Below are positions 21,423-63,545 of a DNA stretch of 64,000 nt, piece by piece (position 1 is the first letter of the stretch; each line of letters begins with the position of its first letter). The stretch covers positions 62,001 to 126,000 of the forward strand of contig JAAOMT010000630.1 of assembly GCA_016748015.1 (NCBI GenBank), written 5' to 3'. The stretch comes from Geosiphon pyriformis uo1. Taxonomy: Eukaryota > Fungi > Glomeromycota. Made by a program: the position numbers and the translations under genes. The notes below the pieces were generated by a model. That model was given only the letters and a program-made list of their open reading frames with translations. It was not told the origin of the DNA and searched no databases.

Positions 21423-22410
21423 TGTTACTTGAATAGAGAAACCAATCTGAAGTTATGAAAAAACATCACCAAAATGTGACATAATACAGAATAGCACACA
21501 ATAATGTTGAATAATGTGTTATAACTTAGAATAGTGCAGAATAACACATTATAATATAGGATAACACAGAATAACATATAATAATACCAGATAACATATT
21601 ATAATATAGGATAATTAGTAATAACATAGAAAAACAAAGCAATAACAGAAATAACAAAGCAATAGTTAGCAATAATGAAACAATCAGAAACAATTCTGTA
21701 AAACCAAAAGAATATATAAAAGTGAGTAGTTGTAGAAGGTAGAAACAGTAGACAGATAGATACAAACCACTAGACAAGAATCAAATATTCTTACCCCTTC
21801 CATCATTTATTCTATTTCATCTTCATCTTCTAAAATAAATCAATTATTAAGAAATTATAATCACAAATTTATGTTCTCAAATTTTGTGAAATTTATGTGA
21901 ACTAACCATTGTTTCATACATTCATTCTAGAACAGATGCTCTTAGCATAACTGCTTTGAACTATTAACAATTTGGACCAATTGTTCTTGATTATAGTGAT
22001 TGACAATACTAATTTATCTTTTATTTTATTTTATTTTATTTTATTTTATTTTATTTTTTTCTCTTGTGAAGCAGCAACATAGTAAAATCAACTGTCTAGA
22101 AATAGACTTTGTGATAGCTTGGTAAAAGAGGGAAGCTTTTTCTAAGTTGTTAGATATTAATATTATCTTAATAGCTTACCAGAAAAGTAAAAAAACACTG
22201 TCAGACCCTAATGATTGTGCTTGTTAGCTCAAAGAAAAAAGCTCACTTTTATAAGAAGTTGCAATTAGTGAGAACCAAAACTCTGTGCCTTATAACCAAA
22301 GAACTTAACAGGTAAATTTACAACCAGTAAAATAAAATTTTTAGAGACTAATAATCAAGATTAAACAACTGAGATTATGCGAAACACACCTTACTAATAA
22401 TTGAAAGCAC
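21423..22410 (+). repeat. Element A 5' LTR (left part; remainder 32274-~32317)
   Basis: Starts TGTTAC, is colinear with 40412-41420 and contains a (TTTTA)n tract. Confidence 0.88.
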
Positions 22411-23394
22411 TGTTACTGGAGGTTTTTGGTCTCTTTTCTGTAATGTTGTTGATACTTATTTGCTGTGAATTCACATTTTCTGGATGTGGTTGAACCTCCA
22501 ATAACTGAATTTTTAACTTCAAATTATCTCCTATAATTTGAACTTGCTGGGCTTATGAGTGGAATGGCCAATTCCGTGCCAGTTGCTTTGTGTAGTTACG
22601 TTGTAGTAAACGTCAACTCTTTCCCAGAAATTGCTTGTCTGGAAGCTCACTAAAAATATGTAGTTACTTTGCTGTGAAAGTCAACTCTTCTACAGGAATC
22701 TTGTCTGTAGGTTACCCTAATGATTATGATAAGAAAATAAAAGAAAATAAAAGAAATGTAAAAGAAATAGAATTTTATCAAGAGAAACATTTTCTATTCA
22801 GGCATGGAGTCACTAACAGTTTACTGAAATTGGTAGCTAATCAATTTCAAAATATTAGTTGGGTTTTGGGGATTTTCCAAGTGCAATAATTAAAAAATTT
22901 GGTTTTTCAAATTATTTGATATTTATTTCTTTTTGTGTGTATAGGAATGGTTCTAAGTGATAAATCTAGAGTAAAATATTTTTTTCTCGAAGAAAGAAGC
23001 TCTTTTTTTATACAACTTGTCGTAACATTATTCTATGAACTTGAACTTTGCTATTTTCTACAATTTCGCTGAACTAAAGATACATTTCGGTGAACTACAA
23101 GTTATTTCTGCGAACTTATTAGATATTTTGATGAACTATCAATTATTTTGGCGAATTTCTATAAATTTCGGCAAACTTTTGAATATTACATAGTTTGGGG
23201 TATTGCATGATTGATCATTGCAATTAGGTTACATTTGTGTTGTGTACAATTTGGGTTATTAATTAAATGATAATTTCGGACATTTTTTGCTAATGTAATA
23301 AGTAATAATTTGAAATGATAATATATGCTAATTAATGATAGGAATTATAAGATAATTTCATGTTAAATGATATCTCTAATTTCGTCTGGTAACA
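22411..23394 (-). repeat. Element B 3' LTR
   Basis: Colinear with 31286-32269 and the same length. Differences in the part compared are transitions. Confidence 0.95.
23064..23178. repeat. About six imperfect 20-21 bp tandem units (core TTTCGGCGAACT) in the U3 part of the B LTR; also ~31939-32053
   Basis: tttcgctgaact / tttcggtgaact / tttctgcgaact / ttttgatgaact / ttttggcgaatt / tttcggcaaact at regular spacing. Confidence 0.75.
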
Positions 23395-24082
23395 TAACCT
23401 CCTCCTTAAGACTGAGCTCCGTTGAAGTCCAAGTACTGTCTGTTATTTCCAGATAATAATCCAAAATTATTGAAGAAATTTGGTCTGAAAATTGTTGAAA
23501 TTTCAGTTCTGTAAGCTTTCCAATGTATTGAATCTTCAAAGGTTGAAAAATTGGGTTTTGTAGTACGTTTTCACAGGTATGGAATAGGTCATAAAGTCTA
23601 AGAGCAGCTTTAAGCCTGTAGCGACTGTTTGTTGATCCAGCTGTTGTCTTGAATTCATTGTGGAGTTGTTTCTGAATAGCTTCTTTTGTGAGGTTTGCTG
23701 TTGTAAGTTCTAGTTTCTGTTCGTAGAGTGTTTTTCCAATGTGAAAATATCTATAGATTGGAAAATATTCAGTGTTTTTCTCATTGAGACACAGTTGAAG
23801 TTTTTGTTGAATTGTAGCATTTGGTGGAATACTAATCGGAGTGAGCATTAGGTTTTCTCTTAAAGCAAGCTTTAAAAGTTCTGGCAGGTGAATTCCAGTA
23901 TAACTTTTTGTGTTCTTTTTATACGGGTGATATTTTCGTGAATTTGGGGCTAAATTTGTAACTACTTCTGTTTGGGTATAATTAATGTGGTTTCTAGTAA
24001 CAGTAATGAATAATTCGGGTATTGTTTTTAAAGCTAACATTAGTTTTTGGAATAATTGTTGAATGTTTTAAGAAATAGTCAT
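23363..24082 (-). pseudogene. Element B ORF3, ~239 codons of unknown function, overlapping the PPT and 3' LTR
   Basis: ATG at 24082, one early TAA (probably CAA), then 225 aa open (24040-23363). Homologous remnants occur in A and D. Confidence 0.75.
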
Positions 24083-24198
24083 TATAAACAATTGAAAAAA
24101 AATAAAAATTATTTTTGGTGTATGGGTTTTTATGTTATTTTTGTTTTGTTTTTGTGAGATTGTTTCTAAATTATAAGAGAATAACTAGTAAAATTAAA

Positions 24199-25582
24199 TT
24201 AAGTGTTCAGGTTGGAAGGTTGTTCAATGACAACTATTGGTTCTAAGTTTCGGGGAATATCTTTAGGACTGACCAAAGGGAAATGTGTACCAATTTGTGG
24301 AATTAATGGTTCAAGATTGTTTCTGGAATGATAGTGTTTCAAACAATCTCCATGTACAACTTTTGCTAGGATTTTATCATCAAGTCTTAGCTTGTATGAT
24401 TTATTGTCTAGGACTTCATGGATAAAGAATGGTCCATCCCATTTATTTTCAAATTTTCCACTCCATTGTTTTTCAGCTTTAGTTCTGTGTAAAAGAACTT
24501 TGTTTCCAATTTTGAATTTATTAGTGACTGAAGGCAATTTGTCATCATGCTGTTCTTTTTGTTGAGCTTGGAAGTGTTCAATATGGGTGGCTGCTATTCG
24601 TCATTTTCCTTTCAATGTGCTAAGCAGAGTGTAGGCTCTTCGCTGAAGTATTTCTTGGAAATTGTTTTCATCAATCGGTTGTGCTGGGTATGTTTCCACT
24701 GTGAAACTGATTGGTAACGTTGCCATCCTTCCATAAGTTAAATCAAATGGTGTGTTTCATGGTATCTTGTTTTAATGTCCTATATGCTAGTAATACTGAT
24801 GGAATAAAGAGATCCCATTCTTGCTTAAAATTGGTTGAGACTTTGGTTAATGACTCACACAATGTTCTGTTAAAATGTTCCACAAGTCCGTTTGTTTGTG
24901 GATGGTAGGGCAAAGACAGAGGTCTTTTGACATTAAATTGTTCACAAATTTCTTGTATTAGGTTGTTCACAAAGTGTGTTCCCTGATCGGATAAAAGTTC
25001 AATTGGACATCCATATCTACAAATGATGTCTTCGTAGATGAAATTTGCTACTGATTTTGCATCTGCTCATTGAATGGCTCTGGCTTTAGGCCATTTAGTA
25101 AGATAGTCTACAGCTACTGTAATATAACAGTTTCCTTGAGTGGTGATAGATAGTGGTCTGACTAAATTAATACCAACTCTGTCAAAAGGCTGTCCAACTT
25201 TGATTGGATTTAAAGGTTCTATAGAGTAAGTTCCTTCTTTTTTTTGACAACTATCACAAGATTCGACATATTTGTGAATGTTTTTTCTCATTCGAGACCA
25301 AAAGTAGTATTTTAGTGTTCTTTGGGTGGTGCTATCTTTTCCAAAATGTGCTGATGAAGGATCCAAGTGCATGTTGTATAAAATGGTCTTTTTTTCTGGT
25401 TCTTGTATTAATCTAAGTGGTTTGGTTGGGTTTTTGAAATTTCAATAATAGATAATGTTGTTGTGTAGAAAATATTGTTTGGCTTGTTGTTGTAACTGAT
25501 GTTTTTTGTCTGGGAACCAATCTGTTGGGATTGTTAATGTCTCCAAATATTGTTTGAGATTGTTGTAGTTTTTGGAGTTCAT
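24199..25582 (-). pseudogene. Element B integrase (separate ORF, one small indel near 24750)
   Basis: MNSKNYNNLKQYL...HLDPSSAHFG...CDSCQ (HHCC), VDYLTKW, SDQGTHF, PYHPQTNGLVEHFN, WDGPF (GPY/F motif). No chromodomain. Confidence 0.9.
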
Positions 25583-25631
25583 TGTTTGTTGTTTTAATGC
25601 TGTTAATTCAAATGGGTGTTGGTTTTGTTTT

Positions 25632-28600
25632 CTAATTTTGCCTCATTCTTGAGAGACAATCAACATTGGTGTGGAGTTTTCCTGGTTTGTGGTGTACAAT
25701 GTATCAGTAATTAGCTAAAAATCCTGTCCATCGGGTTTGTTTTGGGTTCAGCTGGGTGTTTTTGTTTTGTAGCCATTTAAGTCCAATATTATCAGTAATA
25801 ATATCGAATTCTTTGGGTCTGAGGTAAAGATTGAAGTGATGTAGAGCCCAGATTACTGCTGTGGTTTCCAATTCTGTTGTGGGGTAGTTCTTTTCAGTTG
25901 GCTTTAATGTTCTACTAGCATAAGCAATTACTCGCTCATTTCCATTGTCATCTAACTGTGATAGGATGGCACCAAAGGCAGTATAAGAGGCGTCAGTTGC
26001 TAACTGGAATTGGTTGCTGAAATCTGAGTAGGCAAGGATTGGAGCTGTTGTGAGTTTTTCCTTAAATATCTCAAAGGCATTTTGGTGTTCTTTTGTCCAT
26101 TTGTATTCAACATTTTTAGTAGTGAGCTGGTTGAAGGGTTTTGCAATTTCTGAGAATCCTTTGATGAATTTTCAGTAATAGAATGCTAATCCAATAAATC
26201 CTCTTAATTCTGTGGTATTTTGTGGAGTCTTGAAGTTTTTGACAGTACTGATTTTTCTGGAGTCTGGTTTAATTTCATCTTTGCTAATAATGTGACCAAA
26301 AAAAGCTAAACTTGTTTTTCCAAAGTAGCATTTTTCAATGTTCAGTTTCAATTCTGCTTTCCATAATCGTTGAAAAACTTCTCGCAGGTGAATTAAATGT
26401 AGCTCGAAAGATGATGAATAAACATCAGTGTCATCAAGATAAATTACTACTGATTTCCAAAGGAGGCCTTTGTAAACAACATCCATGAGTCTTTGGAATG
26501 TTGCTGGTGCATTGCATAATCTGAAAGGCATTACATTGAACTCGTAATTTCCTCCTTGAGTGGTGAATGCTGTTTTGGGGCGGTCTTTGGAATCCATAGC
26601 AACTTGCCAGTATTCACTCTCTAAATCTAATGTTGAAAAGTATTTGGACTTTCCAAGGGCATCCAACATGTCATCAATTCGAGGAAGAGGGTAGGCATCC
26701 CCAATGGTGATACTGTTGAGTTGTTGGTAATCAACACAAAATTGTATCTTTCTATTTTTTTTTTTAACTAGAACCATAGGTGAGGCCCATGGGCTCATTA
26801 ATGGTTGAATAAGCCTATTGTTAAGCATCCATTGTACTTCTTTTCGGATAAATTGGTAACTTTCTGGAGCAACTCGATAGGCTTGTTGTCACCTGGGTTT
26901 GGCATCTCCTGTATAGATTTGGTGTTGAACCAAATCAGTTCTTCCTAAGTCATTGTTGTTTTCGGCGAAGATATCAGCAAATTCTGCAATTAGTTCTTTG
27001 AACTGGGTCTGTTGTTGTGGTTCAAGTTGTCCCATGTTGATTTGAGATAGTTTTTCCATGACAACATGGTAGTTTTCAGAGCTAGGGTTTGGGTTGATTT
27101 TTGGTAGTAAATGTCTAATAATTTTAGGAAAATCGGGGACTGTTTGGAGTAATTCTTGTTGAAATATATTACTGTGAATAACTCTAATTTCTAAATTATT
27201 TAATAAAATTATGGGGTAATTATTGGGATTGTAAAAAGTAACTTGGACTTTCTTTGTTCCTTCTGGAATATAAATGTTTGGGATTGAAATATTATGTTCC
27301 AAGCAGATTTGTTCATTGGACTCAAAAATTTGTTGTGTGGTTGTTGGCTTTGTGCAAATATAGATTTCCGGATGTTCTCCAAAGGGTGAGATAGTAATCG
27401 GTTGTGGAAGTTTGAGAATCTGGTGGGATTCATTCTGTGTATTAAGAGCTATATTAACTGGAACTGTGAATCGTCCAGTTGAACCAAAACCTTGGGTTCC
27501 TCTATTGCTTTTTCCTAATTGTTCTCTTTGATTGACTAGTTGTAAACCCGAAATGTTAATTAAAAGTAGGTAAATAGCTTGGGCAATTTTTTCAGCATGT
27601 TTGATCTTGAATGGTTTGTCAGTTTCATTTTGAAGCATCACTGTTATGTTTCCAGTATATTCAGCATCAATTATTCCTCCTCTGACATTGATTCCTTTGC
27701 TTGCCAGAGAGGACTAGGAGGCGATTTGAACCATTGCTCCTGGCAGAATTTTGAGTGCAATTTTGAGGTTGATTTTTGTAAGAGATTTGGGTTTGAGAAC
27801 AAGAGTATCCTTGCCTGGATATCTTAGGTCATATCCAGCATTAATTTCATGTGCTTTTTCGGGTTTTATTCTCTGTCCGTTGTTGTTGAAGTATTTAAGT
27901 TGTAAGGCAGGCTGATTTTCGATAAGATAGATGGGTGTTGTTTCAATTTCTTTCATTTCTTTAGGTTCTTCAAATTCAATTTCATTCTCATCATTTTTGC
28001 TGGGCAAGGGGATACTAAGAGCATAGCATTCAGGACACCACTGTTCATTGCAAGGCATAATGCATTCTTCACATAGCCTAATGTTCATTTGCTCTAATCA
28101 TTGAATTTGAGCTTCTTGGGTCGGGTAGGTGTAACTTGCAATTTGGTGATAGACTTCTACTTCATCTTCGTAATTGAATCCAGCTAATTCCATAGTGTAT
28201 TCAATGTATTCTGCTTTCTTCATTTGACAAACATCTTCTTTGGTAGCTCCATTAATTAATGCCATTGCTAAGTCGAAAATCATCTTGGCATCATAAGAGT
28301 AGTGATAAAGTTTGTTGAGAGCACTGTTGTATGCTGCATTAAAGGGTGTTCTTCTTTTTACTTTTTCTGAAATTGATAAAGCATATTGGCAGGTCTGATC
28401 GCAGACGCCTCCTCTTATTGCTACATCAATCCAATTGCATTCTTCTGGTAGCATATCTCCACAAGTTAAACAAGGAGTGTTGTCCCATTTTCTGCTTCTT
28501 TTTATTAGATGGCCCCATTGCTCTCTGTGGCAAGTCTTGCAGTAATAACAAGTATGATTCTCATATTCTTCTTCAGGTGAAATGCAGGCTCCCATTGACA

Positions 28601-31244
28601 ATAGTTTCTTGTGGCAGTCCTTACATTTAAGGGGAATATAGGGGCGTTGTTTCCTTGGTTCGGGTTTTGAGTAAAGTATATTCCATCCAGAGGTTTCGGG
28701 TTTAGTGTGTGGGGTAAAATGTTCTTGTTCTGTTTCATCAGCCCAGTTGGACGTTAATCCAAGAGCCATGAATGTTTCGATTATTGGTTTTTCTTCTTCT
28801 GGTTCAAATTCAAAAGCTGGGGCTTTTTCAGAGCATTTGTTGAATGTACCACAAATGGCAGGTATTCGGGCGTGTTGTCCTTGGTAGAAGATTGTTAACT
28901 CTTGTGTTTTCCAATTCAAATTAGCATTGGCTTTTTGAAGCCAATTATTTCCGACAAGAGCTTGGTACTGGGGTGTGTCCATTACAAGAACTTTGACTGG
29001 AATGGTGATTCCATCAAGAGTGAATAGAAAATTGTCAATTTCTCCTACTGGGGTCTTTTTCATGCCATCAGCAGTGACAATTACTGTTTGAGCTGGTCGG
29101 TCAACCTTTCTTTTTAACTGTTGCATTAATTGGTAGATAATAATGCTTCCAGCGGATCTACTGTCTAAGATCAAGTGAATTGGCTTTCCTTCTACTTCAG
29201 TTTCTGTGTACATTGCAGTGATGGCTTTTTGCTCATTAGCTGCTGCATTGCTAAGCAAGAATGGTGATTCATTTGCTTCAAATTCAAAAGGAAAGATATT
29301 AGAGAGATTGGCATTTTCAGCAATTCGGACTGGTGGAATAGTAGTGTGGTTATGAGAAGGGTTTCGTTGTTGTTGTACTGCAGCTCTACCTTCCGAGAGT
29401 GCAGTATGGTGAAAATCCTGTTCTTCTGACATTGTTAAATAACTGGATTGAGTGTGGTAATGGTTGGGTCTTGGTTGAGTGGTATTTTGGGGAACTAATT
29501 GGTTGTTCGAACTAATTCTACTGTTGTTTACTTGGTATTGGTTTTGTGGTGTGAATTGATTTTGTGTAATCAGTCTTCAAGCAGATACTTGATAATATTG
29601 TGTGGGTAGTTGTTAATATTGCTGTTGGATTAGTTGTGAGGCGGGCTGATAATAGTTATTTTGGTATTGGGGTCTTGGTGAATAGTAAGCTGGTGGTAAT
29701 GGTTGATAATAAGATTGTTGTGGTGGAGAGTAACGTTGATTACCTCTATTTTATTGGTCTTGTTGCAGCTTTCTGCAATCTCTTTTCCAGTAGCCAGAGA
29801 TTCCACAGTAATAGCAATTCTGGGGCTGGTTATTGGAAAGTGGTACAAAGTTATTTTGATTTCGTATTTGGGGTGGTTGATATCTTTGGGGTTGTTGTTG
29901 TTGTTGGTTGGTAAAATAGTTTTCGACCTTCTTTGTAAGTTGGTCAATTTTTTCCTCAGCTGCTGAGCTGGTTTCTCCAATTGTCAAATTTACAAGTTTT
30001 GTACAATTGACTTCTTCCATGGCCATTTCGTATCTTTTTGCATGCTGTATGGCAGAGTTTAAATCTTCTGGCGTGTGTGGGCGAACCTTTTTAATTAGTT
30101 TATCTTTTAGACCAGCAATAAATTGATCCAAGATTTGAGCATCGGAATAATAATTGTTTGTCTCAAGTTGGCGAATCCGTTTGAGAAGTTTGTTGAATTT
30201 CCCAATATAAGTCATAACGGATTCGGAGAGTTCTTGTTTGATATTTCGAAAACAATTGTAAAGAGTAATGAAGATATTATTGTCGGTAAACTATTCAAGG
30301 AAGGCTGCTTTGAAAGCATTCCAATCATTGAATGAGACAGCAAGGTTTTCAAACCATTCTCCTGCTGTTTCTTTAAAAAAATAGGGAATTGTTCTTAACA
30401 TTCTGGCAGTGTTCTATCCATTTGCATCTCCAGTTTTAGTAACTTGGTCGAGCCATTCTTGGGGACTGGTCTCAATATCTTCTCCATTGAATTCAGGGAT
30501 TTTTGCGATGTATGTTGTCATTTTGTCTTCTTCGTTTTCACTGTCTATTGATTCTTCTTTGGTTATTTCAGAGTTGTTTTCTTCATTTGCTGCTGTCTCA
30601 GAGTGTTCACTTTGATTTTCAGCTAGAAAATCAAGGAGATTGGAACTAGTTTGAAGGGGTTCTTGTTGTCTGGATTGACTTCTGAGTAATGTAAAATCTT
30701 CTGGTCTTGCAAATTGATTCAAGGGTGAATTAGGTGTTTGTGCTTGTACAAGTAAAGCTGAAAAAGGTGTGATAGTAAGTAGAAGTTTTGAGCTGGTTCT
30801 TTGTTCAGGTGTTTGTAAATGTTTGAATGATATTTTGGAAGTATTGGGTGTTGTGTGAACAGGCCGGTTATCTTTTTGTCTTTTGTTGCTACTGGTTTCA
30901 GGTTCAGATTCGAGTTCAAAAGCAAATTGTGCGTTTGTAGGATATCTTTCTTTGCAGAATCGAATGATATTATAATCAAGTTCCTCAAAATAAGTAGCAC
31001 AAGCTTCAGCACTAATGTTCTCTGATTCAGTGTTGGAATAGTGTAGTATGTTCTCAAGAAGATCTCTTTTAACTGTTGTAATGTTATAGTTCCCAAAGAG
31101 GTAGTCATTGATTCGATTTTCGATGTATTGAAAAAGTGTTTTCTTGAAAGCTATGATTCCATTGCGTATTTCAAATCGTTGTTTGCAGTGTGTATAAATT
31201 AATTGATAGTACTCTAAGGTTGTGATGTTTGAGGTAGTCACCAC
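25632..31244 (-). pseudogene. Element B Gag-Pol polyprotein, single frame of ~1870 codons with nonsense mutations
   Basis: Fragments starting at 31244, 30215, 29432, 28088, 27641 and 26828 are all co-frame. Motifs: capsid KIPEFNGED, CYYCGISGYWKRDC, LILDSRSAGS, dUTPase motifs, YPLPRIDD, IYLDDT, ATDASYT and NVDCLSRMRQN*. Confidence 0.92.
27475..27860 (-). other. dut: dUTPase domain within element B Pol (homologues: A ~35995-36380, D ~59115-59500, E ~51839-52019 partial)
   Basis: All five trimeric-dUTPase motifs in order: AGYDL, S*SS (RSS), GIIDAEYTG, KIAQ, RGTQGFGSTG. Confidence 0.92.
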
Positions 31245-31285
31245 TTTGAATTTGTTGCTGTGTTATTTCTGTGGAAAGCACCAAA

Positions 31286-32269
31286 TGTTACCAGAGGTTT
31301 TTGGTCTCTTTTCTGTAATATTGTTGATACTTATTTGCTGTGAATTCACATTTTCTGGATGTGGTTGAACCTTCAGTAACTGAATTTTTAACTTCAAATT
31401 ATCTCTTATAATTTGAACTTGCTGAGCTTATGAGTGGAATGGCTAATTCTGTGCCAGTTGCTTTGTGTAGTTACATTGTAGTAAATGTCAACTCTTTCCC
31501 AGGAATTGCTCATCTGGAAGCTCACTAAAAATGTGTAGTTACTTTGCTGTGAAAGTCAACTCTTCTACAGGAATCTCGTCTGTAGGTTACCTTAATGATT
31601 ATGATAAGAAAATAAAAGAAAATAAAAGAAATGTAAAAGAAATAGAATTTTATCAAGAGAAACGTTTTCTATCCAGGCCTGGAGTCACTAACAGTTTACT
31701 GAAATTGGTAGCTAATCAATTTCAAAATATTAGTTGGGTTTTGGGAATTTTTCAAGTGCAATAATTAAAGAATTTGGTTTTTCAAATTATTTGATATTTA
31801 TTTCTTTTTGTGTGTATAGGAATGGTTCTAAGTGATAAATCTAGAGTAAAATATTTTTTTCTCGAAGAGAGAAGCTCTTCTTTTATACAACTTGTCATAA
31901 CACTATTCTATGAACTTGAACTTTGCTATTTTCTACAATTTTGCTGAACTAAAGATACATTTCGGTGAACTACAAGTTATTTCTGTGAACTTATTAGATA
32001 TTTTGGTGAACTATCAATTATTTCGGTGAATTTCTATAAATTTTGGCAAACTTTTGAATGTTACATAGTTTGGGGTATTGCATGATTGATCATCGCAATT
32101 AGGTTACATTTGTGTTGTGTACAATTTGGATTATTAATTAAATAATAATTTCGGACATTTTTTGCTAATGTAATAAGTGATAATTTGAAATGATAATATA
32201 TGCTAATTAATGATAAGAATTATAAGATAGTTTTATGCTAAATGATATCTCTAATTTCATTTGGTAACA
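31286..32269 (-). repeat. Element B 5' LTR
   Basis: Followed on the minus strand by TT-TGGTGCTTTC (PBS). Confidence 0.95.
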
Positions 32270-32317
32270 GCACCAAACATTACTATTTTCTTACCCTACC
32301 AAGTTTACCTATAACAT

Positions 32318-32336
32318 TTGGTGCTTTCTGTAAGGT
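32318..32336 (+). promoter_or_regulatory. Primer-binding site of element A (consensus across A/C/D: TGGTGCTTTCTGTGAGG)
   Basis: TGG start 2 nt after the LTR end. Related sequences sit at the same position in B, C and D. Confidence 0.8.
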
Positions 32337-32377
32337 TATAAATCCACAGAGACAGAACACCCCAGAAATTCACAAAA

Positions 32378-35300
32378 GTGACAACTATTAAAACAGTAGG
32401 AAAAGACTACTCTCCATATAGAAAAGCATTATTTCAATACTTTTAAAAAGATCTAGGAATACCAGCAGAAACTGTTTATACAGAAAGTAATTTTTGTAAC
32501 TATATCAATGCAAAAATTGACTACTTATTAGACCATACAACCAATACAGGAAGACTTGAAGAACAAATCCATCAAAGCTTATTAGAGTACTCAACAGTCA
32601 TGACTACCTGAGCAATTACTGAAACTCTGCGCATAATTGATACAGATATTAAATATTACATGGCAAAATAATTCCCTCAAATACAACAACCAGTGGAATC
32701 TGACTCTGAGGAATATGAAAACAAATCTAACAACTTTACAACTGTCCAAGCCAAGTCCATGGTCAACAAAAAACCAAGATTCTTTTTCCCAACAACTCTA
32801 TCATATCATCAAACACTCCAAAGTAGAATTGTATTCAACTCATCTCCAGAAACCCAGTCGGAAACACTATGAACTCCTAAAAATCTACACTCCTGGGGTC
32901 AACACAATTGGACCAAATCATTAGGAAAATATGGATTATTGTTTGGAAATTTCATCCCAACAATTAATAAAACAGACAAAAATACATCAACATGAGAAAC
33001 ACTACCAACCCAACTCTTGACCAAATTATCAATTACTCTCTCTAAAAAAACAGCTATTCTCCAGCCCATTGAGATAATTAACAAAAGAAAACAACCAAAA
33101 TTAGCACCAGGAGAACACTCTAGCATGCAAACACCAAACTCCTCAGCATCAACCAATAAGACTCCATCTATTTACCAGATCATGGCTTACTGAGATATTG
33201 CCAAATTAAAAAAATTCTCTGGTGAAAAAGACAATGCATATACATAAATTGCAGAAGCCAAGAAAGCTATTACTGCCAACAATTAAGATGATAATAGGGC
33301 CATTCAAGCATTGTCATTTTTTTTGACTGAAATTGCAGACTCATGATATCAAAGCCTTACAGAAAAACCAACCAACTTTGCTGTCTTTAAACTTGTTTTT
33401 CTGCAATACTTTTGTGATCCTAATACTCTCATCAGATTACAAAATCAGTTTAGTATAATAAAACAAAAAGATCACGAAGCAGTAACCACTTATCTTGGAT
33501 GATTCAACCAAATCCTTCATTAAACCCAGGCCATTGAAAGGAACTACTACACTGTGGCACAAATCCTTAATCAATTTGTCAAAGGATTAAAGAGCAGCCT
33601 CCTCCGATCTGTAAGACTCTACCACCCAACAAACCTACAAGAAACAGTTACTTTTACTTATGCCTTTGAGTCAGCAGAACAAAAGGCTAACCATATTCAA
33701 GTTGTTAATCTGGCTATTAATGAAATATTCAATATTGACACAAAAATAACTCAATTAAGTAAAAAAATAACTCAATTAAGTAAAAAATTAACTCAAAAAA
33801 TTGAGGAATTTTTAGCTGATACTATAAGACTCTATCAGCCACCACAATAAAGAGATAGTAATAATAACAGATACCAATAACAACAGAATTGTCAGCAACA
33901 ACAACAATCTTGAAGATCCAATTTTCGCAATTATTACTATTGCCAAAAATCTGGACACATTGTCTAAAACTGCTATAAGAAAGTAATGGACCAAAATCAA
34001 GGAAATTAATATTAACAACTGAGATACTCTCAAAACATGGTATTCCAATACTTTGCACCTCAATATCAACTGCCTCAATACTCACAACAAATTCAGTATA
34101 CCTAGCAACCACCTCAGAACTATTACCAGTCATTACAGCCAATGGTTCAAACAGTATTCTAGTACCAAAACTCTGTTAATAATCAACCTAAACATTGTGT
34201 GATTGATTACAACCAAAGATAAAGAAACCCCAACAACAATCAGATGTCAACTAACAGTGTACCATTGCAATCTCTAAATTATAGTAATATCTCATCTTGA
34301 CCAGTACCAACTGGATATTCTAACCAAGTCTTATATTTTGGTTTCAATAAAAACCAGGATTTTTATAGCTTTACATCTTTAGAAAGAAAAAATGTAGGAG
34401 AGACTCCCAACCTTTTAAGAGAAAATTGAACCAACAATACTATCCCATCTACTATTATCACTGAAGATATTACCTTTGCTGTTATTTTTCCTTTCAACAT
34501 TGATGGTCTGAACACAAATAGCCTTTTTAGTGGAGCTGTCATAAATCAGGACAAACCAATCACAGCTCTGTACACTGATGCTAAAGTTGAAAACATAGAC
34601 ATTAAATTAATTCTCAATAGTGGATCAGCAAGCAGTATAATAATAAAACAACTTATGAATCAATTAGGTTACCAAATAGATCATGCTGCAACTGTCTGAA
34701 TAATTACTACAGATAACAATACCAAAATCCCAATCAGAGAAATCAATAATTTCCCCTTTGAAATCAATAGAATCCAAATTTCTACAAAAGTCCTGGTCAT
34801 GGAAGCCACACAATATTAAGCTCTTGTCAGAAATAACTGGCTGGCCAAAATCCATGCCACTTTTGACTAAAACACACAGAAATTACAAATTATCTTTAAT
34901 GGATGACATGCCTGAGTTCTAGCTACATGTAAACACTTTAAAGTCCAAAGCTTGAAGGAACCACTAATTGAATTCGAAGACACCACACCACTATCAACTA
35001 TAGAAATCTATCAAGTTTCATGAGTAGACAATTTCCGAACAGAGTTACCCTTACCGCCAACTTGGGAAGAAAAGGAAAAGGGAAAAACAGAAAAAAAACT
35101 ACAATCAGCATCTACAGACTATTCTGCCCCAAGTCAAGGAAGTCAATAGTATCAAATCTTGAAATTAATTTGTGTCGACTGTGGAAAAAAGTTATCTTCT
35201 ATAGGTGCATGTATTGGAGATGATGAGAAATGGCCAACTACCACCAAATATTACTGCAGACTTTGTATGTTGAAAAAATTTGGCAGACCAAAATAACAAG

Positions 35301-38201
35301 ACAAATGGGACAATATATCATGTTTTGCCTGTGATAAGATTCTGCCAGATGAAGAACTATGGAATAATGTTCTCAGCTGAGGAGAAATATGCAATGAAGC
35401 ATGTTAATACACAATCTTGATCAATAATTGAGTACAAAAAGGAACTCCAATTGACAACACTTGGAAACAAGTGTTATGATAATTAGACAGGTATTTCCAT
35501 GATGAACACAAGATTTGGAGAATGATGAGTGCAAAAGCAGAAGGCACTACAACCAGAAAATTACTGGAAATTAAAAACAACTTTTTATTCCTTCCAAAAC
35601 CCAAATATATCATAACTTTTGATGTTTTTGGCAACATTAAAGACAACCCAGAATATTTCTATAAGCACTATTAGAACCTGGCACTAACTAGAAAAAAGCA
35701 GAAACAAAAACTAGCTGACCTAAACATAAAACTGTGTGATCATTGTTTGATCTCTTGCCACTTTCAGTATTGCAATGAATGCAATATTATGTTCAACCTG
35801 CTTCCAAGAAAACTATACCCAATCACCAAACTACTGAAATCTAAGGTAGAAGAGGAATTAATTACCAAGAACATGTCATTTCAAGATCCAACTGAAGATA
35901 CCAAAACAGAACAGTATCTTGTGTATCCTAATCTATCCAAAGAATTAGAATTAAAATGGTACAGTAACAATGAGGAAAAAATCTGTTCAGAAAGAGCACA
36001 TAATATTGATGCTGGTTTCAATCTATAATACTCTGGACAATCAATTATAGTTATAGCCCTATATTTCTTTGTAAAAATAGATCTTAAGATAGCATTAAAA
36101 ATTCCTGTTAGTACAATGTTACAAATTGCTTTTCGATCTAGTCTAGCCAAAAAAGAAATTGATGTAAAGAGAGGAATCATCAATGCTGGTTACATGAGAA
36201 ACATCATAGTAATGCTACAGAACAATTCGAACAAATCTTACAAAATAGAATTACAAAAAAAAATTGTCCAAGCTATTTTTCTACTTTTAGTCAAAATGCT
36301 CTAATTGACCCCAGTAACAACCCAAGAAGAATTAGGTCTCACTGTCTGAGAAATCAACAAGTTTAGATCAAGTGGAAGAGGAAATGTACCAATCAACTTC
36401 ATGGAGGAAAATAATAATCAGATAGAACTTATCTACACCAATACAGTCATTTTCATCCCCTCTTATTGACAATACATCCTCAAGATAAATCAAAAGATCT
36501 AAAAATCAAGCCCTGTTATTTGAAGCCAATCCTGAAATCTGTTTCTTAGCCAATGTTGCTAACTTATACCTACTGGCCAAAGCCCATAAACACTTTAAAA
36601 TCTCTATCCACAACCCCACAAAAGATGTAATTGAAATTCCCAAAGGGACTCTTATTGGTTCTATCTCACTGGACATTTAACATCTCAAAAAACCCCAGCC
36701 TATCCCAGATTTTGCACAATTGTTCTTATTTTGCAACATCACTTCACAAGTATAGAATCAGCCAAAAAAAAGTTACTTGTTTACACCAGAAGAAATCAGT
36801 AAATTGAATCTCAGAAACTTAAGTACTCTGCAGCAAATGCAACTCAAGGTTCTCTTGAATCAATATGCCAATGTTTTTGCCAGTGAAAATGAATTCAGAT
36901 GCACTGACATCATGAAACATCAGATTGATATGGAAGACACTTGACCTATTAAACAATGAGCTTATTAAGTACCCCAATTTGGCAACAATTTTATCAAACA
37001 AGAAGTCCAACAAATGCTTGACAATGGCTTAATCAAGAAATTGTTAAGCTCTTGGTCCTTTCCAGTAGTTCTGGTCACCAAGAAAAATGGAAAGATATGA
37101 TTTTGCATAATTACTGAAAATTAAATAGTGTCATCTGAGAAGATAGTTACCTCACTTCTCTCATCCAAGAAATCCTGGACAATCTAAGAAAAAAGAAATG
37201 GTTCTCATTATTAGACTTAGCCAGTAAATATTAGCAAGTCGAAATAGATTCCAAAGATAAAAAAAATGGCATTTACCACTTGAGATGGAAACTTTGGGTT
37301 TAATGTAATGCTTTTCAGACTCTGCAATGCTTCTGCCACATTTTAATGCCTTATAGATGTCATGTACAAAAGAATTCTTTGGAAATCAGTCATAGTTTAC
37401 TTAGACAACACAAATGTATTCTCTGAAACATTTGATAATTATCTGCTTTATCTTCAATAAGTCTTTGAATACCTTTAAAATGTTGGATTAAAACTCAATT
37501 CCAAGAAATGTTTCTTTGGAAAAACTGAGTTAAAATTCCTAGAACACGTGATTGGCAAAGACAAAGTTAAACCCAACCTAAACAAAGTCCAAAAAGTTAA
37601 AAATTTTCCAGTTCCAATTAACCTTCAAGAGTTATAAGAATTTTTAGAATTGGCAAGATACCACTGCCAATTTGTCAAAGGATTTTTAACTATAGCAAAA
37701 TCTCTTCACCACTTGTTGTCCAAATATGTGCCATACCTATAGAAAAAAGACCAACAGAAAGCATTCAACTATCTTAAACAGCAATTGATTACATCCTCAA
37801 TCTTAATTTACCCAAATTTCATTAAACAGTTCATTGTCGCTACAGACACCTTGAAAAATGCTCTAGGAACAGTCTTATTACAAATAGAACCAGACAATAG
37901 AGAACATTTAATTGCCTATACCAATTACAGCACTAGCCCAGCAGAAAAAAATTACAGCACAACAAATCTGGAATGTCTTGCCATTTATTGGGCCATACAG
38001 ACATGGAGACATTACCTCAGCTTGCTCTTTGATCTATATACTAATCATAAAGAACTTGTTTGGTTACTTAACAATCCACAACTGGAAGAAAAATATGTAA
38101 GATAAAGTACTTATCTGCAACAATTTCCACTCAAAGTCTATTACAAGAAAGAATTCAAGAACACCAATGCTGACAGTTTGTCGAAGATGTTACAAACCTA
38201 A
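32378..38201 (+). pseudogene. Element A Gag-Pol polyprotein remnant (N-extension, capsid, CCHC, protease, Cys-rich module, dUTPase, RT, RNase H)
   Basis: Motifs AKLKKFSGEKD, LILNSGSASS, CVDCGKKL, AHNIDAGFNL, IINAGY, VYLDNTNVF and NTNADSLSKM*. Many stops and some indels. Confidence 0.85.
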
Positions 38202-38211
38202 TTTTAGACCC

Positions 38212-39578
38212 ATGGACACACTCACTTATTAATAATTACATCAGTACTTATCAACACTATGTTTTAAGGAGATATTATCTCAACAGAAATAAAATACTAT
38301 ATGAAAACAAGCTTGAAAATATTTTATTCAAGACAACCAACTATATTAACAAGAACACCAAAACTGTTCCACCTCACAATAAGTTATAAAAAACAATGAA
38401 AAAGAAACTATATACATAGTATGCATTCTGATCCAACTGCAGAACACTTTAACAAAAATGCTACCCTTGAAAAAATACTAAATTTATACTATTGGCCAAC
38501 AATATACAAAGACATTTTTGAATACATGCTCAATTGTGACTCATGCCAGTAAAGAGGAGGAACAAGATCAACAGAACCACTTTGATCCATTTCAGTTGGA
38601 AATCTATTTGATAGAATTGAGATCAATTTGGTTGGACCTCTCTCAATTACATCTCAAGGAAATTGCTATATTGCTATAGCCATAAACTATCTTACAAAAT
38701 GGCCAGAAGCCAGAGCAATCCAAGTGGCTGATGCCAAAACAGTAGCCAAATTTGTGCATTAAGACCTAATTTGCTGACATGGATGCTCAAAAGAATTATT
38801 ATCTGATCAAAGAACACATTTTGTTAATAATACACTAACTAAACTAAGCCAATGATTTGGAATAAAGCAACATTTATTATCATCATATTACCCACAAACA
38901 AATGGATTGGTAGAACAATTTAATCAAACACTGTGCGAAGCATTAACAAAAATAAGTCATGAAAACAAACAAAAATGAGACTTATTCATACTTTTTGTAC
39001 TCTTTGCATATTAAACAGTGAAACAAAATATGACTCAGTTCATACTCTTCAAACTAGTCTATGAAAAAAAAGCTACATTATTGATTAAATGAGTAATACT
39101 ATCATACCCAACAGAAACAATCAACGAAGAGAATTTTGAAGCTATTTTACACCAAAAAATGTATCAGCTAATGAAAATGTTAAAAGACAATCAAAGAACA
39201 GCAGCTGACAATATTAATCATGTTCAAAAACAACAAAAAGAAAGACATAATAACTGCCTATTAAAACAACCAATGGAATTCAAGATTGAAGATCAAGTAC
39301 TGTTACATTGTACAAAAGCTAAGAAACAGTGAAAAGAAAAGTTTGACCCAAAGTGGAACAGTCTATTCTATATATACAAAGCTTTAGAAAATGGAGCTTA
39401 CAAATTATGATTAAAAGACAGAATTTTAAAAAAAATAGTGCATAGAAATTGGTTAAAAATTTATCATGTAAAACAAAAATTATCATCATCAGTACCTCAG
39501 CTAGGAACACAAATTTCATTAATCAGACCAGAAGATATACCATGAGATTTGGAACCAATTATTGTTATCAAAACATAG
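38212..39578 (+). pseudogene. Element A integrase (separate ORF)
   Basis: MDTLTY...MHSDPTAEHF...YYWP...CDSCQ...NYLTKWPEARAI...SDQRTHF...YYPQTNGLVEQFN...LEPIIVIKT*. Confidence 0.85.
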
Positions 39579-39582
39579 ACAA

Positions 39583-40424
39583 TATGCAGCAAATTAAATT
39601 AGGGAATTCAAATATATATAGCATCTGAAAAACAGCAAAAAACAATAGAACTTTTAATATGGACTTGTTAGATCAAATTCTACAACTCTTGAAACAACTA
39701 TTTGATGCAATTCAACAATCTTCTGCTCAAATAGAAATAACAATTGATAGAAAAAAAAATACACTATAAAGATAGGAGCAAGAAAGGAATGGACGCGAGT
39801 TTAACTAAAACTAACTGTTCCTATCTCTACACCCTATCCAAGAAAAAAATTTTATAAAAAGGAATTAAATCATCTCAGGTGGGGCTTGAAAAAAGAGTGG
39901 AGAAATGAGAAAAAGTTTATAAAAAAAGATACTTGGTTCCTGAGCTGGAAAAAATCAAAAAAGCTTTAGCTCATGGGATTGATCTCCCTTAAACAAAAGA
40001 ATAAACACTAAACAATGCAAAAAAATGAAAAGAAAGACTTTCTTCAGCTTATTGGTTCTACAAAATGGGTAAAAAATTAGACTTAAAGATGTCATATAAA
40101 GGCTTTAGCCAAAAAACTTTCAACAAAGAAGCAATGCAACAAGTAGAAAAATTCATAAAAAGAAGCAACCTGACCTTATATTACAAAGCAACATATTGAC
40201 TATATGCTGCTTTCCAACTTTGTTCAAACATATTGTTGTATAGATCTATAAAGATGATAACAGTTAACAATATAGAACAAATTACCAATCAACAATTCGA
40301 AGACCTATGAAAAACAATATTTGACACAACCATCAAACATTATATAAACAAAGACATAGAAACAGATACATACAATTTCACAGAAGCTCAATTCTAAAAA
40401 AAGAGGGATAATATTACCTGAGTA
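39583..40424 (+). pseudogene. Element A ORF3 remnant
   Basis: ATY*LYAAFQLCSNILLYRSIKMITVNNIEQITNQQFEDL is homologous to ORF3 of B. The start position is uncertain. Confidence 0.6.
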
Positions 40425-41420
40425 GAGAAACTGATCTGAAGTTATAAAGAAACATGACCAGAATGTGACATAATACAGAAAAGTACCCAATAACATTGAA
40501 TAACATGTTATAACTTAGGATAATGCAAGATAATGTATTATAACATAGAATAAATAGTAATAACGTAGAAGAATGAAGTAATAACAGAAATAGCAAAGCA
40601 ATAATTAACAATAATGAAACAATCAGAAGCAATCCTGTAAAACCAAAAAAATATATAAAAGTGAGTAGTTGTAGAAGATAGAAACAGCAGACAAATAGAT
40701 ATGAACTACTAAACAAGAATCAAATATCCTTATCTCTTTCATCATTTATTCTATTCTATCTTCATTTTCTGAAATAAATCAATTATTAAGAAATCAGAAT
40801 CACGAATTCATGTTTTTGAACTTTGTAGAATTTACATGAACTAACCATTGTTTCGTACTTTCATTTCAGGACAGATGCTCTTAGCATAACTGCCTTAAGC
40901 TATTAACAATTTAGACCAATTGCACTTGATTATGGTGATTGATGATACTAATTTATCTTTTTTTTATTTTTATTTTTATTTTTTTATTTTTTATTTTTTT
41001 ATTTTATTTTTATTTTTATTTTTATTTTTCTTGTGGAGTGACAACATAGTAAAATCGACTGTCTAAAAATAGACTTTGTAATAGCCTGGTAAAAGAGAGA
41101 AGCTCTCCCTAAGTTGTTGAATATTAACATTATCTTGATAGCTTACCAGAAGGGCGAAAAAACACTGCCAGACTCTAATGACTGCATTTGTTAGCTCAAA
41201 GAAGAAAGCTCACCTTTATAAGAAGTTACAATTAGCAAGAACCAAAACTCTGTGCCTTATAACCAAAAAACTCAATGAGTAAATTCACAATCAGTAAAAT
41301 AAGACCTTTAGAGACTGATAATCAAGATTAAGCAACTGAAATTACATGAAACATGCCTTATTAATAATTAAGAGCACCAAACATTACTATTTCTCTATTC
41401 TACCAAGTTTATTTGTAACA
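40412..41420 (+). repeat. Element A 3' LTR
   Basis: TATTAC (mutated TGTTAC) after a purine tract. It ends GTAACA and is uninterrupted at the ...GAGCACCAAAC site where B sits in the 5' copy. Confidence 0.88.
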
Positions 41421-44400
41421 GTGTATATTGCTGTAATTGGTTTATTCTAATTAATAGCAGTTTTGCTAAAAAGATTAGTAATGTTTAGATTATCAATGTT
41501 AAATGGAAATATAATAATGAAAATATTATCTTCAATAATTATAATAAGTAAAATTATATTGGTAAACAGATTTGTATTTTAAGTAAAAAGATTAATGATT
41601 CTAATTACATTTTTTTTTTAAAAATATAGCATTACTAAAATTTAGAATTTTTATAAAACCAAGATATGAGATCTGGTTTAAATATCTGGTTTGTGCTGTT
41701 TGAAATAGTATGTTGTTATAATTTACTAATCAAAATGGCTTACTAATAAGTTGTGTCTAATTTTTATTAATGTTTTATTATCCTTAATTATAATCAATTG
41801 CTTAAAGTCTGAGATAGTTATATATGAGAGCTTGGTATTAAAACATTGTTTATACCATTGCTTATAATTGCTAATAGTAATTCTAAAACAGTAAATGTAA
41901 ATACTGTAGTGGTTAATATTAAGATATGGAATATTAAGGTTTTATGGCTTGAAAATATTTTAGTTGTTGTTAATATTGGTTTCTTTAGTTTTGGTCTGTT
42001 ATTTTTTTTCAACAATCTCTGGCAATATGTTCAAATTTCTGATAATAGTAATAATTATAAGGATTTGATTTCTAGGGTTGTTGTTGTTGTCAATTCTGCT
42101 GTTATTAGTATTTATTAATATTGTCTTTTTATTGTGTTGGCTGATAGATTTTTGCAGTTTTGGCTAAAAATTTCTCAATTTTCTGAATTAATTTCTCACT
42201 TAATTAGGTAAGTTTTGTGTCAATATTAAAGGTTTTATTTATAACCAAATTAACAGCTTAAGTATAATTGGCTTTTTGTTCTATTAATTTGATATTATAA
42301 ACAAAAATAATTGCTTTTTATAAGTTAGTTAGATGGTTAAATCTCACAGATCATAAAATATTACTCTTTAATTTCTTGATAAATTGGTTGAAAATTTGTC
42401 TTATGGTGTAATAATTTTGTTCAATTGTTTTTATCTGTCAAAAAATTTAATTAAACTGTTCAAAATAAGTGGTTACTATTTTATGATTTTTTTGTTTTAT
42501 TATGTTTAACTAATTTTGTAGCCTAATAAGTGGATTGAAATTGCAAAAATACTATAAAAAAGCAAGTTTAAAAACAGCAAAGTCAATTGATTTTTTCTCA
42601 AAACTTTGGTATTATAAGTCTGCAATTCTTGTCAAAATAAATAACAGTACTTAAATTGTTTTGGTATTATCCAAATTGTTGATACTAATTGTTTTTTCAG
42701 CTTTTATAATCCAGATATATATGTTGTTTTTTTTACTAAAAAATTTTTTCAGTCTAACAATATTTTGGTAAGTCATAATCTAAGTAATAAGAGATAATTT
42801 ATTTGTTAATAACAAAAGAATTAATAGTAGTATACTTGGTTGTTTTATGGGTTTTAAGACTGGTTGTTTTTTTTTATTGGTTGGACCAATAAACTACAAG
42901 ATAACTGTTTTTTTTGAAAGGGTAGTTGCTAATTCAGTTAAAAATAGTGCTAGTAGTAGTGCCCAAAATAATGTGTTTTTACTGAGTTTACTGGCTGTTG
43001 AAATAAGATTCTTAAATAATAATCTATATTCTCTTAGGAATTTGGTTTAAAGATTGTTATTATAGTCTTAAGAGTACAAGATTCTGAAAGTTCTTGAAGT
43101 ATTTAATTATGTTTCTATGAATTGGTTAAATAAAATTTTATTTTTTGGTGTCTAATAATATAAAGAAGTAATTAATAAGAAAAATCTTGATTTTTTGTTA
43201 ACTGTAAATCAAGTTTTTTCTTGTATAGTTGTTGTATTATTGGATTCAGACTCAGATTTTTCAGAGTTGAGTTTTGCTAATTGTCTTTTTTTCACTTGAA
43301 AGTAATATTTTGCTGTGTATTTTTTGATTTTTTTATTAATTATATGAAAAGTTTTAGCTATGGCCTGGGTGGCAGTTGTTAAATATGTTAATAATTTTTG
43401 ATAAATTTGTTCTCTAAGTTTTTTTGTATTTGTTATTTGGCCTAATAAATAGTCAATTTTGGCATGCAAATAGTAACAAAAATTACTTTTTGCAGTAATA
43501 GTTTTTGGTAGTATTCCTAAGTCTTTCCTAAAGTGTTAAAATAATGCTCTACTATATAGTGAATAATTTTTTTTTATAGTCTCAATAGTTATTACTTTTG
43601 TGAATTTTTAGAGTATTTTGTTTTTGTGGATTTTATAACTTCACAGAAAGTATCAAATATTATAGATAAATTTGGTAAGATATATGGTAGTAATATTTGG
43701 TGCTCTATATTTGGATAAAAAAAGCTTAAAAGTTTTTTTTTATAGGCTTGTATAATATATTAATATTATCAGTCTTTAAAAGTCTTTTAAAAAATGTAAA
43801 TTTACTTATAAAGTTTTTTGGTTATAAGACACAGAAATATAGTTTCATAGTGTTACAACTTGTATATATGAGTTATTTTCTTCAAGTTAGTTAAACACAA
43901 TTGCTAAAATTTGGTGATGTTTTTTCACTTTTTTGATAAACTAATAAGATAATATTAATATTTAATCTTAAAAGAAGCTTTCTTTTTTTACCAGTCTATT
44001 ATAAAGTCTATTTTTAGACAGTTAATTTTTTATGTTGTTACTCCACAAGAAAATAAAGAAAAAAAAAAAAGAACAGAAAAAATAAAATAAAATAAAACTA
44101 AAAAAAAATTTGTATTGTTAATAATCAAAAGTAATTGGTCTAAGTTGTTATTTGTTTGAAATATTTTTATGCCAAGAAAATTTGGCTGAAAATAAAAATA
44201 AGAGAATAAGTAATTTGGTTTAAACACAAGATTTGAAAATCATAAATGAATGATTTTTGGTTTTAAATATTTTCTTTATTTGAGATAATATAAATATATA
44301 AGTAAAATAGATCTAATAAATATAAGTAAAAAATATATTTTTTATCTGACTATTTTTTCTGTCTGTTCTTTTTTTACTTCTAAAACTATTCATTTTTATA

Positions 44401-44678
44401 TATATTTTTGGTTTTATAAAATTGGTTTTTAATTGTTTATTATTACTAACTATTGTTTGCTATTTTTGTTATTGCTTTGTTTTTTTATACTGTAATTAGT
44501 TATTTTATGTTACAGTTAGTTATTTTGTGCTATTTTATATTATTGTGTTATCTTGTATTTTAAATTATAATGTATTATTCTGTGTTATTTCATATTATTA
44601 TGTTTTTTTATGTTATTACATTTTCTAATTATGTTTTTTTAATATCTTTTGTATTTGTTTTTTTTTATTTAAGTAACA
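41421..44678 (-). mobile_element. LTR element C (A family, heavily eroded): 5' LTR, PBS and gag, truncated just before the protease
   Basis: LTR 43658-44678 is homologous to the A LTR. PBS remnant TGATACTTTCTGTGAAG. The gag remnant is colinear with 32378-34575 and ends at NKPITAIYT, abutting the 3' LTR of A. Confidence 0.8.
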
Positions 44679-50374: not shown

Positions 50375-50566
50375 TTTTTCATCCGTGGTTATAACTCTTA
50401 ATGGATTATCTGGATTTTGTCGATTCCGGTAATAAAGTATGTGATTTTGGATGAAATAGTGTTTTGCTAATTTTTGGAGCTTAATTAGCTCTTTTACTGG
50501 CATTTCTTCGTCTATTTGTAGTGTTTCCAAGTATTGGCTGAGGTTTTTGTAAAGGTGGTTGTTCAT
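50375..50566 (-). pseudogene. Element E integrase, N-terminal start only (separate ORF, cut by gap)
   Basis: MNNHLYKNLSQYLETL...AKHYFIQNHILYYRNRQNPDNPLRVI matches the start of the B integrase ORF. Confidence 0.8.
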
Positions 50567-50595
50567 TGTTGTTGTGGTGGGTGGGTTGGTGATTT

Positions 50596-60580: not shown

Positions 60581-60614
<34 letters not shown>

Positions 60615-63483: not shown

Positions 63484-63545
63484 TTTTGGATGATTGTTGT
63501 TGGTGCTGGTTTTCTGTAAGATTATACTTCACAAAAAACACCAAA

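Follow-up and report, generated by a model that had tools for sequence, protein, structure and literature searches.

A 64,000-nucleotide (nt) stretch of the genome of the glomeromycotan fungus Geosiphon pyriformis uo1 (contig JAAOMT010000630.1, positions 62,001 to 126,000 of the forward strand; hereafter the window, with positions counted from its first letter) holds several Ty3/gypsy long terminal repeat (LTR) retrotransposons, among them element B at 22411-32269. In these elements and their relatives, the frame encoding Gag, protease (PR), reverse transcriptase (RT) and RNase H ends in a stop codon, the integrase follows in a different open reading frame (ORF), and a small third frame, ORF3, recurs downstream. 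It is very probable that this lineage has a separate integrase gene. We further propose, with a probability of roughly 0.6, that its integrase is translated on a shorter RNA of its own or through internal initiation, and is not cleaved from a polyprotein.

Element B is complete, as the earlier note on this DNA had claimed: both LTRs, the target-site duplication (TSD), the primer-binding site (PBS), the polypurine tract (PPT) and all genes were located.

22411..32269, minus strand: element B, complete but dead Ty3/gypsy element, inserted in the 5' LTR of element A
22411..23394, minus strand: 3' LTR, 984 bp
23363..24040, minus strand: ORF3, 225 amino acids (aa), no internal stop, crossing the PPT into the 3' LTR
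23395..23412, minus strand: PPT, overlapped by the end of ORF3
24199..25582, minus strand: integrase gene with its own AUG; H2C2, DDE core, SH3/GPY; broken by stops and one frameshift
25583..25631, minus strand: spacer from RNase H stop to integrase AUG, 49 nt, AUG-free, A/C-rich
25632..31244, minus strand: Gag-Pol in a single frame that closes behind RNase H; GUG at 31244 is the likely start
25635..26945, minus strand: RT and RNase H (Pfam RVT_1 1.8e-27, RT_RNaseH 2.5e-33)
27171..27473, minus strand: segment of ~100 aa after the dUTPase, conserved across families
27474..27863, minus strand: dUTPase (Pfam 1.7e-20)
28023..28640, minus strand: Cys-rich module, 11 Cys invariant in four families
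28836..29225, minus strand: aspartic protease (Pfam)
29769..29816, minus strand: CCHC knuckle, His decayed in B
30006..30521, minus strand: capsid (Pfam Retrotrans_gag / Ty3_capsid)
30522..31244, minus strand: Gag extension at the N-terminus; its 241 codons include neither Met nor stop, and the first ~110 aa can be aligned across A, B, D and E
31268..31285, minus strand: PBS, TT then TGGTGCTTTC; tRNA-type
31286..32269, minus strand: 5' LTR, 984 bp

The LTRs have TG..CA ends, differ at 44 sites (43 of them transitions) and are flanked by the 4-bp TSD GCAC. The reading frame from 31262 down to 25635 spans 1,876 codons with 10 internal stops and no frameshift; Pfam places capsid, protease, dUTPase, RT and RNase H in it, and it terminates after ...LSRMRQN, a few residues past the last RNase H motif. 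All five dUTPase motif positions are recognisable. The CCHC-type knuckle is intact in elements E and D and decayed in B and A. The B integrase comprises H2C2, rve and SH3/GPY regions, with SH3_Tf2-1 the sole match on its C-terminal piece, and no chromodomain was found by Pfam in the window integrases.

Elements A and D have the same layout, and A, D and E have divergent proteins (identity to B: RT 44-69%, PR 49-59%, capsid 29-37%, Cys-rich module 31-41%), and the domain order bears out the common plan that had been proposed for the four families.

21423..41420, plus strand: element A, with B's layout; 5' LTR split by B; RNase H stop ends at 38201, integrase AUG at 38212
41421..44600, minus strand: element C, truncated, hypermutated A-family copy, cut in the protease
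46219..64000, minus strand: element D, with B's layout; E lies within its RT; RNase H stop ends at 49208
49995..58077, minus strand: element E, younger, nested in D's RT, 4-bp TSD; RNase H stop ends at 50596, integrase AUG at 50566

The stop at the RNase H end lies at a homologous codon in all four families, and the integrase starts 49 (B), 10 (A), 29 (E) or 30 nt (D, start decayed) downstream of it. Relative to Gag-Pol, the integrase is offset by +1 in B and A, +2 in E and 0 in D, that is, in three different frames. Two further details of the first description, the truncation of C and the loss of the 3' part of E in assembly gaps, proved correct, with C being a cut A-family copy and E, scattered over seven scaffold gaps, lacking the integrase core and ORF3. 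The seven gaps, of 20 N each (50355-57356), have 99-100% duplicated overlaps, marking E contigs that were mis-ordered in the scaffold. The LTR bodies, described as unrelated, are not wholly so: those of A and D share ~100 bp at 75%.

The split recurs far beyond the window. Metagenome relatives were taken as the best 80 of 505 from an integrase-seeded scan, 32 of which reach the RNase H end and 48 of which do not. All 32 informative loci are split and none is fused; on this count we read the split integrase and ORF3 as inherited and not as decay. Their integrase frames, mostly of 400-430 aa, are intact and stand behind intact RNase H stops in independent contigs; the integrase N-terminus follows the pattern M-[DENST]-x-x-x-Y in 30 of the 32 loci, with a purine at -3 in 29. 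The junction offsets are spread over all three frames (8, 13 and 11 loci), with all three stop codons in use. The gap between RNase H and integrase measures at most 25 nt in 9 loci (some overlapping), 26-100 nt in 13, 101-200 nt in 4 and more than 200 nt in 6, with a maximum of 943 nt, although two of the six longest probably result from broken RNase H tails.

Protein databases and a sequencing run point the same way. The eight most similar single-RT proteins (RT-RNase H 54-56% identical) carry no integrase, and fused proteins begin at ~52%; one integrase-free cluster contains Rhizophagus irregularis proteins of 1,423-1,447 aa. Stand-alone integrases of ~420 aa are named for R. irregularis and R. 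clarus, and the 10 of the 120 listed that carry an organism name are all Rhizophagus. No PF00385 chromodomain was found among these 120 relatives, and no integrase relative in a scan of viral contigs. Integrase lies between direct LTRs together with gag-pol in B and in the loci L039 and L069. In sequencing run X1, where B's family is very high-copy (a statement of depth, not of copy count), no variant at 12% or more was seen at the terminal stop across 766 contigs on the junction; at the internal stop at 26174 another base accounts for 68% of the depth. This variant pattern is modest support for an inherited split.

Trees of RT-RNase H plus integrase were built with unlabelled database hits and no labelled references from GyDB, REXdb or Repbase; once two long-branch fused rows had been removed, 57 of 86 rows had both parts. 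E is without the integrase core, and the mixture-model analysis omitted five more rows. Elements A, B and D group with locus L001 at 100/100, and E joins B in the RT-RNase H tree, in agreement with the claim that the window families form one lineage. Twenty-six of the 27 split elements form one branch (92/94, LG+G4), and holding all 27 together is not rejected (approximately unbiased (AU) test, p 0.378). Under the mixture model two well-supported split sub-clades persist, and the split label changes twice on the tree versus 17.5 times when shuffled. Taken as a whole, monophyly of the split elements has moderate support from these trees. The split group shares a branch with chromodomain-bearing plant and algal proteins (99/99 in the LG+G4 tree, 98/98 in the mixture-model analysis), lying either inside or sister to them. 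The complete two-LTR split element L069 (8,235 bp, 47% GC, with a dUTPase and a weak ORF3) is placed outside the main split branch, possibly reflecting a different fungal host or a second origin.

The RT-RNase H is 45-56% identical to gypsy proteins, and the named relatives are all Glomeromycota (Geosiphon, Rhizophagus, Glomus and Cetraspora). Judged from sequence, this is a deep clade marked by the split integrase and ORF3 and distributed across several Glomeromycota orders. The earlier note had envisaged an old, coherent clade known from four families of one genome and defined by a long domain layout. The lineage, the split integrase and ORF3 stand; the full module list does not serve as the mark of the clade, the Cys-rich module and probably the dUTPase being local to one branch, and the extent was drawn too narrowly, with named relatives outside Geosiphon.

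Matches to the Cys-rich module among long proteins are all named G. pyriformis (66 of 66, up to 88% identical to B's Cys-rich region), and outside this set no profile match below E 0.2 was found in 120 proteins and 80 loci. Eleven of the relative loci extend as far as the protease, and one of these has a dUTPase; a dUTPase between PR and RT is known in fungal Ty3/gypsy elements (PMC2864245), and one at this position in rotifer elements (PMC6431247). On this distribution, the Cys-rich module is an apparent add-on of the Geosiphon branch, and the dUTPase is probably another. The long module list is therefore the property of one branch, the wider group being marked by the split integrase and ORF3. 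The Cys-rich module, with its invariant cysteines, likely binds zinc. Its helical core is predicted with confidence and has no fold match (best Z 6.6, to unrelated helical proteins), and the Cys-dUTPase model is poor overall, with a predicted local distance difference test score (pLDDT) of 53. The ~100-aa segment after the dUTPase, first described as a dUTPase-like repeat, is a real conserved feature, but searches gave no support for dUTPase homology: hhalign gave a probability of 0.3% (E 0.21), the model has pLDDT 30-70 there, and no dUTPase match was found in Pfam or PDB. In other sub-clades RNase H is followed by Cys-rich tails of different kinds. Gag-Pol extends 165-590 aa past RNase H in loci L004, L005, L007, L036, L039 and L043 and in proteins P0144, P0148, P0159, P0160 and P0165; these tails are not integrase, are Cys/His-rich in those inspected and match no Pfam family in those scanned.

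The second mark of the clade, ORF3, belongs to a family of helical proteins of ~140 aa with 599 clusters at 50% identity. Of 10 looked up, 4 have named members, and these come from Cetraspora pellucida, Glomus cerebriforme and R. irregularis. Mutually similar ORFs follow the integrase in 14 of the 34 loci with room for one, often starting on or near the integrase stop, and a deeper profile gives a downstream match in 21 of the 80 loci, a set with many sequences that end too early to reveal ORF3. AlphaFold models the 139-aa protein as a compact all-helical globular domain of eight helices (pLDDT 97). No Pfam family is common to even two of 17 members and none of the 17 has an env Pfam match; neither a PDB sequence match nor a Foldseek match at E<=0.001 in PDB or BFVD was found, and the best VIA Z was 4.9. 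The top Atlas match, a closterovirus coat cluster (0.94, 152 shared features), was unconfirmed by the fold searches and stands as a lead. On the model, ORF3 is a small soluble helical protein and not an envelope protein, so the retrovirus-like complexity attributed to these elements was overstated. The window ORF3s are longer than the family (A and D are 28% identical to each other, E 1e-9). A family profile built without window rows or L001 found B (independent E-value 0.003) and then A (0.069) as its top matches across the six-frame window, and tblastn links B ORF3 to that of L001; B ORF3 is thus likely a long, divergent member of the family. Two loci depart from the usual arrangement. L064 has an ORF3-like gene upstream of gag (3-602, independent E-value 2e-5), which is the ORF3 of a neighbour in tandem or else a gene that has moved, and L015, a split-integrase element, has a NUDIX hydrolase as its third gene (1945-2889, Pfam 1.4e-10), possibly a nucleotide-cleaning analogue of the dUTPase.

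The unusual expression strategies that had been suspected extend from the separate integrase ORF, in differing frames, to a candidate GUG start. An in-frame AAAGTG lies 41-62 nt into the leader of A, B, D and E and heads a homologous N-terminal domain; no Met occurs for 241 codons in B and 216 in E, both stop-free. The residues K-V stand at this position in 41 of 42 aligned Geosiphon-named homologues and K-M in none. Since C-to-T/G-to-A decay cannot convert AUG to GUG, Gag-Pol likely starts at GUG. The integrase-free relatives P0141 and P0145 have Val first, as do several 1,321-aa members of P0145's cluster, consistent with non-AUG Gag starts beyond Geosiphon. In one sub-clade, a covarying RNA motif of ~40 nt ends mostly within ~10 nt of the integrase AUG. 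It consists of two stacked stems, an 11-12-nt bulge opening with a GNRA-like stretch, and the loop CANNGYGA. Pairing holds in 97.5% of cells in 16 aligned copies, with two-sided changes at 7 of 10 pairs, the structure having been drawn from the same sequences; none of 500 shuffles was as good, and slid controls reached at most 3 pairs. Across 81 sources the motif model gives 22 sites, every one of them on the coding strand (for example, L004:5193-5230 and L007:4464-4500). The motif has no Rfam match at its site in 15 loci, and its exact pattern was not found in viral or prokaryotic contigs.

We propose the following cycle. Gag-Pol would start at GUG and build particles that reverse-transcribe from a tRNA primer, while integrase would be translated from a separate shorter RNA or by internal initiation. 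Made apart, the integrase may be loaded in trans or may meet the cDNA afterwards, with ORF3 (~140-230 aa, helical) as a candidate adaptor or regulator of the loading step. Between protease and RT, the Geosiphon branch would have gained a Cys module resembling a zinc finger, together with a dUTPase that would keep uracil out of the cDNA.

Somewhat less likely, in our view, than internal initiation or a separate RNA is termination-reinitiation, in which ribosomes finishing Gag-Pol would restart at the nearby integrase AUG on genomic RNA, and again at ORF3. This alternative, possible if doubtful as a general account, has precedents in SART1, where RNA structure beyond the stop is required, and in two fungal viruses, CHV1 and HvV190S (PMC10275272). 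Spacers of 21-200 nt contain 11 AUGs versus 19.3 expected, the window spacers have none, and the frequent ORF3 starts on or near the integrase stop would fit a second restart. Restart of the type governed by a termination upstream ribosome-binding site (TURBS) works within ~20-30 nt (PMC10275272) and cannot cover the whole group because 23 of 32 gaps exceed 25 nt, and the six gaps of more than 200 nt contain AUGs at or above chance. Stop-restart could nonetheless serve the short junctions, those of the window included. The TURBS-like motif UGGGA occurs in none of 10 short-gap and one of 15 long-gap junctions. Recoding, by which a frameshift, readthrough or splice would fuse integrase to Gag-Pol and yield ordinary protein products, is common in Metaviridae, and 8 of 32 junctions are in frame; it is nevertheless very unlikely here, given the use of all three frames and all three stop codons, gaps of up to hundreds of nt, the Met conserved at integrase position 1, and a branch-site/acceptor pattern in just 6 of 32 junctions versus 27% of control windows. 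That the split is decay or an assembly artefact of dead copies, with active elements keeping an ordinary pol, is scarcely credible in view of the intact, unfused relatives described above, even though every window copy is mutated and E lies in scaffold gaps.

Several observations weigh against our interpretation. Nine of 32 junctions overlap or are at most 25 nt long, and these and the AUG-free window spacers of 10-49 nt fit stop-restart equally well; the RNA motif was not found in the window elements by the model scan. The mixture model does not settle the base of the tree, where a fused protein (P0158) sits in the basal fork, and monophyly of all split elements is no better than the values given above for 26 and 27 elements. 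Most relatives are metagenome contigs without a host name, and the stand-alone integrase search was length-limited and hence blind to fused forms. In the X1 junction contigs an edge-placed control stop is not variable either, and X1 is possibly the window's own source. The ORF3 profile links only weakly to the window, with the B and A values given above and no match in D.

Comparison with known systems places these elements within Ty3/gypsy (Metaviridae), with which they share TG..CA LTRs, a tRNA-type PBS, a PPT, a 4-bp TSD (class range 4-6 bp), a Ty3-type capsid, gypsy-type RT/RNase H, the order PR-RT-RNase H-integrase and an H2C2-DDE-GPY/SH3 integrase. They differ in the integrase outside pol (4 of 4 families, 32 of 32 relatives), in Gag and Pol in one frame with a likely GUG start, and in a conserved non-env ORF3; Ty3/gypsy pol including integrase is described as one polyprotein (PMC3248453, PMC5408684). 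Fungal chromoviruses bearing a dUTPase (PosPlaTy3-5, Tmt1, Phanerochaete; PMC2864245) likewise have it between PR and RT but keep the integrase in pol, and chromoviruses carry at the integrase C-terminus a chromodomain that neither the window integrases nor the 120 stand-alone relatives have. The bdelloid elements Vesta, Juno and TelKA (PMC5408684) also combine a dUTPase with a separate ORF3; however, their ORF3s are env-like, GDSL or DEDDy and their pol holds the integrase. In errantiviruses and other env-bearing elements, ORF3 is an envelope or fusion glycoprotein, whereas here it is all-helical without an env Pfam match. Two recently separated LTR lineages are from animals, not fungi: Troyka (PMC12440569), with a 3-bp TSD and CG..CG ends in place of 4 bp and TG..CA, and the Kuafuorterviruses (PMC11673190). 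Stand-alone gypsy-like integrases are otherwise found in the DNA transposons Ginger1 and GingerRoot, the former with H2C2 and GPY (PMC6839031). Ginger1 has terminal inverted repeats around a lone integrase; here the integrase is enclosed by LTRs and follows RNase H in an element that has a PBS and a PPT. A split LTR element would be a plausible intermediate to Ginger-type integrases.

The first 10 kb of the window contain the host genes Hid1 and a KH-domain gene, and beyond them lies a CpG-depleted retroelement nest. A LINE-like element with ORF1, an endonuclease-like N-terminus, RT and RNase H occupies 13054-21415 (minus strand); it is preceded by 1.2 kb from the 3' part of another copy (67%). 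An extremely AT-rich, barely recognisable RT remnant (11990-12478), 33% identical to B's RT, shares with C (GC 21-23%) heavy C-to-T decay that is not confined to CpG sites. The LTRs of A (21423-22410 and 40412-41420) are merely 79% identical, no TSD is common to its flanks, and its 3' end meets C in the middle of the protease; two insertions may have recombined to give A. RCAC/GTGY stands at all four insertion flanks (22407-22410, 32270-32273, 41421-41424, 46215-46218, 49991-49994 and 58078-58081), which suggests a target preference of the integrase of these elements; the pattern makes up ~1% of window 4-mers and was spotted post hoc with n=4.

The U5 regions of A, C and D carry a reverse complement of the PBS core, 8-9 nt long and ~45-55 nt before the LTR end (22400-22410 plus 32270-32277; 41372-41381; 43696-43706; 63594-63603), and B is inserted exactly within this motif of A. 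Folding of U5 with the PBS gives z -2.7 in D and -0.5 in B. The complement is a possible U5-PBS stem or self-priming relic. In Tf1-type self-priming the PBS pairs with the 5' end of the transcript that carries it and not with a tRNA; here A, C and D carry the complement in U5 and B has no stable fold, while the PBSs of relatives are tRNA-like, starting with TGG and varying as tRNA primers do.

No description of a split-integrase gypsy clade was found in the literature available to us; subscription journals, supplements, Repbase, GyDB and REXdb were outside this scope and may hold one. Surveys of transposable elements in Glomeromycota (PMC11952901; bioRxiv 2021.03.30.436303) treat gypsy, in their available text, as a mere class, and LTR elements make up 41% of the G. 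pyriformis genome (PMC11952901). New here are host names, the distribution of gap lengths, a modelled ORF3 family, the candidate GUG start and the covarying RNA motif. LTR retrotransposons and retroviruses normally secure delivery of integrase by fusing it to Pol, and a lineage without a Pol-fused integrase must express and package the enzyme another way; R. irregularis carries intact-looking members. Pipelines that expect a single pol would wrongly label the integrase a 'DDE transposase' and take ORF3 for an orphan gene of the host, the latter inflating orphan-gene counts in these fungi. As a tentative proposal, the group may constitute a previously undescribed, genus-level and tricistronic branch of Metaviridae living in arbuscular-mycorrhizal fungi, with a GUG-started Gag-Pol without integrase, an integrase with its own start controlled by a new structured RNA, and an ORF3, possibly of a new fold, that loads or aims the integrase in trans. 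If so, it would be the first LTR lineage whose integrase is made independently of the particle polyprotein, and would form a natural link to integrases of the Ginger type that stand alone.

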